From Escherichia coli (GTDB lineage Bacteria; Pseudomonadota; Gammaproteobacteria; Enterobacterales; Enterobacteriaceae): a stretch of 64,000 bases of DNA. The stretch lies in the NCBI RefSeq assembly GCF_044647545.1, contig NZ_CP172818.1. The stretch is one strand, 5' to 3'. Below are positions 31,333 to 32,130 of this stretch, piece after piece (positions within the stretch are counted from its first letter, which is position 1; every line of letters begins with the position of its first letter). Below the pieces are notes generated by a model. That model searched no databases and had not been told where the DNA came from. It saw nothing but the letters and a program-made list of their open reading frames with translations. Both the position numbers and the translations under genes were made by a program.

Positions 31333-32130
31333 TTATCCCTATTTCCACCTGGATCATAGTCACATTAAGTGACTATGATCCAGTTAATACTCTCTTAGCT
31401 ATACAGTGTTTCAGTTCAATTACGCACTATCATTGAAACAATTGCCTGCTGTTGATTATTTCAACCTACTGAATTTAATCTGATTTTTTTCGTTCCATGG
31501 CAAATTAGCCATTTCAAACATTATCATGGCTGATATTTTCCGTGGTCAGGTTTAATGTTTTAAAAGTGCTGTGGGAAAGTGAACAAAGAGTTCCGTAAGC
31601 GTTGATGCTATGGGCGGTTAAATAAGTAATCCGGGTTCATTTTTTTGCAACTGGCGTTGATTACATTGCATAAATATCCGTGTCTCCAGACGCTATATAA
31701 AAACCTGAAGACATGAATGAGTTATTTAATCAGGTAATTTCAATGCGTTAAAAGAAAGCTGGCAATCCAATTGCCAGCCTAAGTCGAAACAAGGAGACTC
31801 GATATTTAAATCGGATTACATTTTAACTTTAGTAATATTCTTCAGAGATCACAAACTGGTTATTGATAACTTATTCTTGGGCAGTAATCCGCAAAAGTTA
31901 ACCTTTTGTTTACTAGTTACAAACTGATAACAACCAGGAATCTTACTTAGGACCAATATATGGAGTGCGTGATGGATAAATCTGAAGTATTGATTAGTGT
32001 TAATAGACGTATTAGTTCACGAAGGGCAAAGTTCTTATAGGCGTTTACTATATTGAACAACGATTCGGACAAGGATGTAAATAATGAAAAGGATGACATG
32101 TTCGAAACGATAACGGCTAAGGAGCAAGTT

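Follow-up and report, generated by a model that had tools for sequence, protein, structure and literature searches.

Between hdeD and gadE in Escherichia coli lies a long intergenic gap, and the question raised by this locus is what the gap contains. We analysed it in a 64,000-nucleotide stretch of E. coli DNA (contig NZ_CP172818.1 of assembly GCF_044647545.1), referred to here as the window. The initial annotation, made from sequence alone, had described an AT-rich stretch of about 800 bp upstream of gadE, had expected multiple promoters, regulator sites and the antisense small RNA ArrS within it, and had regarded it as a likely place for uncalled RNAs or small ORFs; it proposed an alignment to the characterised gadE leader, scans for GAD boxes and promoter motifs and an Rfam search as checks. 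We find that the interval is the long-studied gadE promoter or "sensory integration" region including ArrS, and as such is already known. We assign a probability of about 0.93 to the explanation of the whole interval as a mosaic that functions as the gadE control region. The identity, bounds, coordinates and conservation of its parts come from the present analysis; what is said on regulator binding, on transcript starts and on how ArrS acts is taken from the K-12 literature.

The hdeD-gadE interval and its spread in E. coli

The gap extends from the hdeD stop codon to the gadE start codon at window positions 31333-32130, as defined by the ORF list and annotation transfer. It is exactly 798 bp long, with hdeD (30760-31332) and gadE (32131-32658) on either side, both on the plus strand. 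The local gene order is hdeB (29731-30069, minus strand), hdeA (30173-30505, minus strand), hdeD, gadE, mdtE and mdtF, and the same order is annotated in the acid fitness island of K-12 MG1655 and of FDAARGOS_497, the RefSeq record of which is 100% identical to the window across 31200-32300. The G+C content of the interval is 0.355 compared with 0.492 for the whole window, in line with the AT-rich stretch described initially, and that of gadE is 0.331. The longest ORF in contact with the interval encodes 65 amino acids on the minus strand and overlaps the gadE start.

Alignment of the interval to its K-12 counterpart (NC_000913.3, 3657568-3658365) revealed the same flanking genes, the same length and 40 differences without a single gap, corresponding to 95.0% identity. 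From 31501 onward, the part that holds all mapped promoters and ArrS, identity rises to 98.1%. Because the alignment is gap-free, coordinates carry over by a constant offset (window position = K-12 position - 3,626,235), and ArrS and the published 5' ends, which the initial annotation had left without positions, are now placed. A 1,101-bp query holding the whole interval (31200-32300) was matched in 5,414 of 5,426 complete E. coli genomes, on the chromosome in every case; in 5,403 genomes the match covers 80% or more of the query. Only some eight gaps between genes in E. coli have this size, and the 798-bp gadE region is one of them (PMC3708157). The gap-free match to K-12, the E. coli-wide presence and the published length of 798 bp together indicate that the length is a constant, conserved property of the region and does not reflect an accidental lack of ORFs.

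In K-12 the corresponding region has been studied in detail. Its promoters and the GAD box have reportedly been mapped (Ma 2004; Sayed and Foster 2009; Aiso 2011 and 2014). PMC3708157 cites Ma et al. 2004 and Sayed and Foster 2009 for the gadE promoter region and lists gadE transcript 5' ends at -21, -124 (T1), -324/-317 (T2) and -566 (T3) from the ATG, which correspond to window positions 32110, 32007, 31807/31814 and 31565, respectively. More than ten regulators are reported for the region, namely EvgA, YdeO, GadE, GadX, GadW, H-NS, PhoP, RpoS, CRP, TorR, MnmE and ArcA (PMC3708157), and H-NS/StpA-dependent protein occupancy covers the locus (PMC11230228). The expectation of multiple promoters and regulator sites is borne out by this characterisation of the hdeD-gadE region.

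Conserved blocks and variable spacers

To map constraint at the genus level, we used a GadE locus scan with one genome per species, covering E. coli, two other Escherichia species, the divergent "E. coli" E69, E. whittamii and E. albertii, and aligned eight Escherichia intergenic regions. Two further loci were left out as contaminants. One, in an assembly of Flavobacterium paronense CECT 8460 (L009), matches the window over 6.5 kb at 97.9% identity and with 30 gaps, and the other, in an assembly of Streptomyces sp. DH24 (L010), encodes 70 GadE residues at 100% amino-acid identity; both look like Escherichia acid-fitness-island DNA contaminating public assemblies.

Against six other Escherichia lineages, three strongly conserved blocks stand out, with fast-evolving or deleted spacers between them. 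The first block (31501-31573), containing the P3 promoter and a dyad, shows 93-100% identity across the eight sequences with 80-100% invariant columns per 20-column bin. The second (31750-31880), containing ArrS and its promoter, shows 85-99% identity, and the third (31925-32130), containing the P1 promoter and the short leader, 90-98.5%, with 31990-32060 essentially invariant. Among the spacers, 31384-31500 is 47-59% identical to other Escherichia species and 31881-31924 49-75%. The 5' part of the long T3 leader (31574-31749, plus strand) is likewise variable, being 53-67% identical to other species, lacking 65-85 bp in four non-coli lineages and possessing no invariant columns between 31641 and 31740. 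The leader between P3 and ArrS is therefore conserved neither in sequence nor in length, which argues against an additional structured RNA there.

With roughly half of the interval (31384-31500, 31574-31749 and 31881-31924) fast-evolving or deleted in relatives, its length could be attributed to residues of a gene or mobile element that has since decayed, instead of regulatory content. The AT-rich nature of this island and the placement of the gadE promoter among acquired gene clusters repressed by H-NS (PMC3708157) would fit such an origin. However, the interval yielded neither a repeat family nor inverted terminal repeats nor a fragment of a long ORF, the constrained half or so of the "leader" coincides with the mapped promoters and ArrS, and published deletion analysis shows that the distal part of the region is required for expression (PMC3708157). 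We consider an origin of the length in such remnants highly improbable and read the interval as regulatory DNA.

A stem-loop marks the 3' end of the hdeD mRNA. The hairpin (31349-31383, plus strand) lies 17 nt past the stop codon of hdeD and consists of a perfect 15-bp stem with 100% complementary arms and a 5-nt loop. The surrounding 91-nt stretch (31320-31410) folds with -26.3 kcal/mol (z = -6.5). In the eight Escherichia sequences, 90.8% of cells are paired and 4 of the 15 pairs have changed on both sides, for example from G-C/A-U in E. coli to C-G/C-G in E69, E. whittamii, E. albertii and E1V33. None of 500 shuffles reached this covariation score, and controls with slid partners were 23-48% paired. 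Pairing is retained even though this is the fastest-evolving part of the interval. G-U intermediates occur in one lineage and fit an RNA on the plus strand. In addition, a K-12 Term-seq plus-strand 3' end at 3657621 (PMC7815308 supplement) corresponds to window 31386, 3-4 nt past the stem. The hairpin lacks a U-tract, the next bases being GUUAAUAC, and consequently does not qualify as a canonical intrinsic terminator, nor did the terminator scan report it. Most likely, the hairpin defines or protects the 3' end of the hdeD mRNA.

The hdeD-proximal 168 bp (31333-31500), most of which is made up of the fast-evolving spacer at 31384-31500 delimited by K-12 and Escherichia identity, represent a difference from K-12. 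Identity to K-12 is 83.3% in this segment compared with 98-99.7% in hdeA, hdeD, gadE and the rest of the interval. Among 5,412 genomes compared with the window allele, 1,301 (the window's own class) are at least 95% identical, 4,110 fall at 80-90% and a single genome lies between. By this measure of identity, E. coli carries the segment in two allele classes that have diverged deeply, a situation that could result from an old allele split or from a recombination patch.

Promoters, ArrS and the gadE leader

The distal promoter P3 is located in the conserved block at 31501-31573 on the plus strand, which contains the reported T3 start at 31565 (-566; PMC3708157). Placed by eye around the published start, the putative P3 hexamers are CTGATA (-35, 31530-31535) and TAATGT (-10, 31553-31558) with a 17-bp spacer. 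The dyad in this block, AGCCAT-N13-ATGGCT, is found upstream of P3. A gadEp2p3 fragment is bound by YdeO, and the hexamer ATTTCA of the YdeO box defined in the same study (PMC4222967) occurs three times in the interval, at 31458, 31511 (31511-31516, inside the P3 block) and 31737; as evidence of YdeO binding these hexamers were discarded because they are too short to be informative. A minus-strand promoter-like match directed toward hdeD (31549-31520, CTGACC-18-GATAAT) is also found in this invariant block and is a consensus match only, of a kind no commoner here than in shuffled sequence.

ArrS is encoded opposite the T3 leader of gadE. K-12 arrS (b4704; 3657985-3658054, minus strand) maps to window 31750-31819 on the minus strand with the same position and orientation relative to gadE, confirming the antisense RNA that the initial annotation had named; in K-12, the longest gadE transcript carries the complement of ArrS in its 5' leader (PMC6755755). 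The two genes share 69 of 70 bases. At 31779, the only difference, an A-U pair close to the base of the stem in the terminator becomes G-U, so that the stem is kept. The terminator hairpin (31780 to 31756) has an 11-bp stem followed by the U-rich tail UCUUUU and is the only terminator-like site in the interval according to the terminator scan. The 70-nt RNA folds with -19.9 kcal/mol (z = -3.4), and a very strong K-12 Term-seq minus-strand 3' end at 3657984/5 (window 31749/31750) marks the ArrS terminator (PMC7815308 supplement). ArrS is nearly invariant across the aligned Escherichia sequences. The FDAARGOS_497 RefSeq record, identical to the window, contains no ncRNA feature between hdeD and gadE and thus leaves ArrS unannotated, unlike K-12. 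To this extent the suggestion of uncalled RNAs was justified.

The putative ArrS promoter region (31820-31880, minus strand) was identified by reading the minus-strand sequence. We infer a -35 element TTGTGA (31854-31849), a 17-bp spacer and a -10 element TAAAGT (31831-31826) with a C at -13 (31832), an arrangement that would be compatible with the sigma-S dependence reported for ArrS. Expression of ArrS is sigma-S- and GadE-dependent (PMC6755755), and a consensus scan detected no recognisable GAD box upstream of the gene. ArrS resembles GadY of the gadX-gadW region, as both are small RNAs opposite a regulator mRNA in the acid fitness island with cis action and Hfq-mediated trans action. In contrast to GadY, ArrS overlaps the 5' leader of gadE and matched no Rfam family, whereas GadY is detected in the window by its Rfam model (RF00122).

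Transcript ends cluster in the ArrS-complementary leader. K-12 Term-seq records a plus-strand 3' end at 3658019 with the label antisense to arrS (PMC7815308 supplement), and this position corresponds to window 31784. It is located 4 nt beyond the plus-strand copy of the ArrS terminator hairpin and 23-30 nt upstream of the T2 5' ends at 31807 and 31814 (PMC3708157), and all three positions lie within the segment complementary to ArrS, delimiting a putative processing zone at 31784-31814 on the plus strand. A start at 31807 would lack a convincing -10 element, as judged by inspection of the sequence. The T2 5' ends and the 31784 3' end may represent the two products of one cut in the ArrS-leader duplex, a reading consistent with ArrS acting on gadE mRNA through RNase III, on which its action is known to depend (PMC6212723).

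The same 3' end would also be explained if the P3 transcript were mainly a non-coding RNA of about 220 nt (31565-31784), ended or cut at the ArrS-complementary hairpin and titrating ArrS. Such a titration could matter because ArrS also acts in trans via Hfq (PMC6212723; PMC5145812). However, the hairpin is not followed by a plus-strand U-tract, which makes intrinsic termination at 31784 unlikely, and promoter fusions attribute about two thirds of anaerobic gadE-mdtEF expression to P3 (PMC3708157). Moreover, the published reading is that RNase III processing stabilises gadE mRNA (PMC6212723; PMC5145812), and the leader between P3 and ArrS is unconserved and partly deleted in other species. A mainly non-coding role of the P3 transcript is therefore unlikely in our view, and we favour processing of a gadE mRNA in the ArrS-leader duplex.

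The proximal promoter P1 occupies the conserved block upstream of the T1 start at 32007 (31925-32006, plus strand), placed by conservation and by the reported -124 end. P1 depends on GadE and is autoactivated (PMC3708157). Spanning the P1 start is a 26-codon ORF (MECVMDKSEVLISVNRRISSRRAKFL; 31960-32040, plus strand), one of eight small ORFs of at least 20 codons that touch the interval. The other seven are interrupted in K-12 or other species, and this ORF alone is intact in all eight Escherichia sequences, with invariance of both ATGs (31960 and 31972), of the stop codon and of the AGGA found 7 nt before the ATG. It could be a hidden small gene for a leader peptide that adjusts how gadE is translated or how stable its mRNA is, much as EvgL acts on evgA within this cascade. 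Its variable codons, in contrast, carry about 3 synonymous and about 9 non-synonymous changes by manual count, as expected without selection on a protein, and these substitutions look neutral. In the invariant part, which extends across the P1 start, first, second and third codon positions are all fixed, a pattern indicative of constraint on DNA or RNA, and the start of the ORF lies outside P1 transcripts. The ORF does not appear in the text tables of acid-stress ribosome-profiling sORFs, two small-protein surveys do not mention gadE, and an exact look-up in a collection of 15 billion proteins returned one record, evidently misnamed as a transcription regulator. Taken together, the ORF is probably not a gene; that it encodes a protein is very unlikely, as is a leader peptide acting on gadE. 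If it did so, the peptide would be limited to the long (P3/T2) transcripts and would provide, comparable to EvgL, a translational control step that P1 mRNAs lack.

Read as non-coding, the P1 block continues into the proximal (T1) gadE leader (32007-32130, plus strand). This leader is defined by conservation and includes the reported -21 5' end at 32110 (PMC3708157). It contains GGA motifs at 32067, 32073, 32091 and 32121, the last as part of the Shine-Dalgarno sequence TAAGGAG. The gadE 5' leader is a binding target of CsrA (apparent KD 138 nM; PMC11210196), and the four motifs are plausible candidates for the contact points of CsrA. An in-frame ATG preceded by AAGGAT is found at 32098-32100, 33 nt before the start codon annotated for gadE. 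It is present in seven of eight Escherichia sequences, the exception being K-12, where ATA replaces it (G at 32100 in the window). Translation from this ATG could yield a GadE form longer by 11 residues; the annotated start has a much stronger Shine-Dalgarno sequence. A long-range pairing between 31866-31889 and 32109-32132 (71% complementary), which might mask the gadE ribosome-binding site in long leaders, was considered and rejected, as the T2 leader does not show it in its minimum-energy fold, which is itself unexceptional (z = -0.39).

Scans of the interval for further elements gave little beyond these features. A simple sigma-70 scan returned 5 promoter-like sites, no more than in shuffled sequence (3.8 +/- 2.1). 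For the GAD box, a 20-bp GadE/RcsB site with the consensus TTAGGATTTTGTTATTTAAA, the interval holds no site with three or fewer mismatches; the best has 7 and ten more are tied at 8, among them a candidate at -233 to -214 in a poorly conserved stretch. A perfect match to TTAGGATTTTGTTATTTAAA is present elsewhere at 41425-41444 on the minus strand, presumably in the gadA promoter, and is the only one in the window with three or fewer mismatches. A permissive Rfam search of 29000-35000 (E <= 1) matched no family inside the interval, its other matches being ES205 and chance miRNA hits. The idea of additional RNAs or ORFs is thus unsupported: apart from ArrS, only the hdeD 3' hairpin is conserved as an RNA structure, and the sole intact ORF shows no sign of protein selection.

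Several neighbouring features were recorded in the window. ES205 (RF02754, 105 bits) is located at 32776-32847 (plus strand) in the gadE 3' UTR and overlaps the position of the K-12 gadF ncRNA (32757-32847); the K-12 GadF Term-seq 3' end corresponds to window 32846 (PMC7815308 supplement). Opposite GadF and directly after gadE, the identical RefSeq record annotates a 92-amino acid "hypothetical protein" (WP_001205324.1; 32659-32937, minus strand), which has no counterpart in the K-12 annotation and is possibly an over-called ORF. Further Rfam matches above the gathering score are GadY (38627-38740, plus strand, 150 bits) and two copies of AgrB (14881-14965 and 15113-15196, plus strand, 103 and 108 bits).

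Working and meaning of the gadE control region

The features placed here suggest how the region may work. Just past hdeD, the stem-loop would end or protect the hdeD mRNA and would be followed by an unconstrained spacer. The distal promoter P3 would then produce a gadE mRNA with a 566-nt leader. On the opposite strand, the ArrS gene, with its sigma-S-type promoter and intrinsic terminator, would give rise to a 70-nt RNA fully complementary to part of this long leader. The proximal promoter P1, activated by GadE itself, would yield the short leader carrying the GGA motifs and the ribosome-binding site. According to published work, H-NS silences this AT-rich DNA, and EvgA/YdeO, GadX/GadW, ArcA, GadE and sigma-S relieve silencing, acting at different promoters. 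In the same body of work, ArrS pairs with the long transcript and, together with RNase III, stabilises gadE mRNA, and CsrA bound to the leader represses gadE expression. Cleavage of the ArrS-leader duplex may generate a shorter mRNA, in which case the T2 5' ends would be processing products. K-12 Term-seq 3' ends map to positions that correspond to the hairpin after hdeD, to the terminator of ArrS and to the part of the leader that ArrS overlaps.

Placing known parts on the window adds no new biology, and the established picture of the region is unchanged. What the present analysis adds are exact coordinates, comparative support for the hdeD hairpin, the two allele classes of the hdeD-proximal segment and a genus-level map that separates the constrained parts (P3, ArrS with its promoter, P1 with its leader) from those free to vary. 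It also makes clear that automated annotation of this strain type leaves out ArrS. The locus matters since gadE decides the survival of E. coli, including pathogens, in stomach acid, and the region upstream of it is a textbook case of the convergence of many signals.
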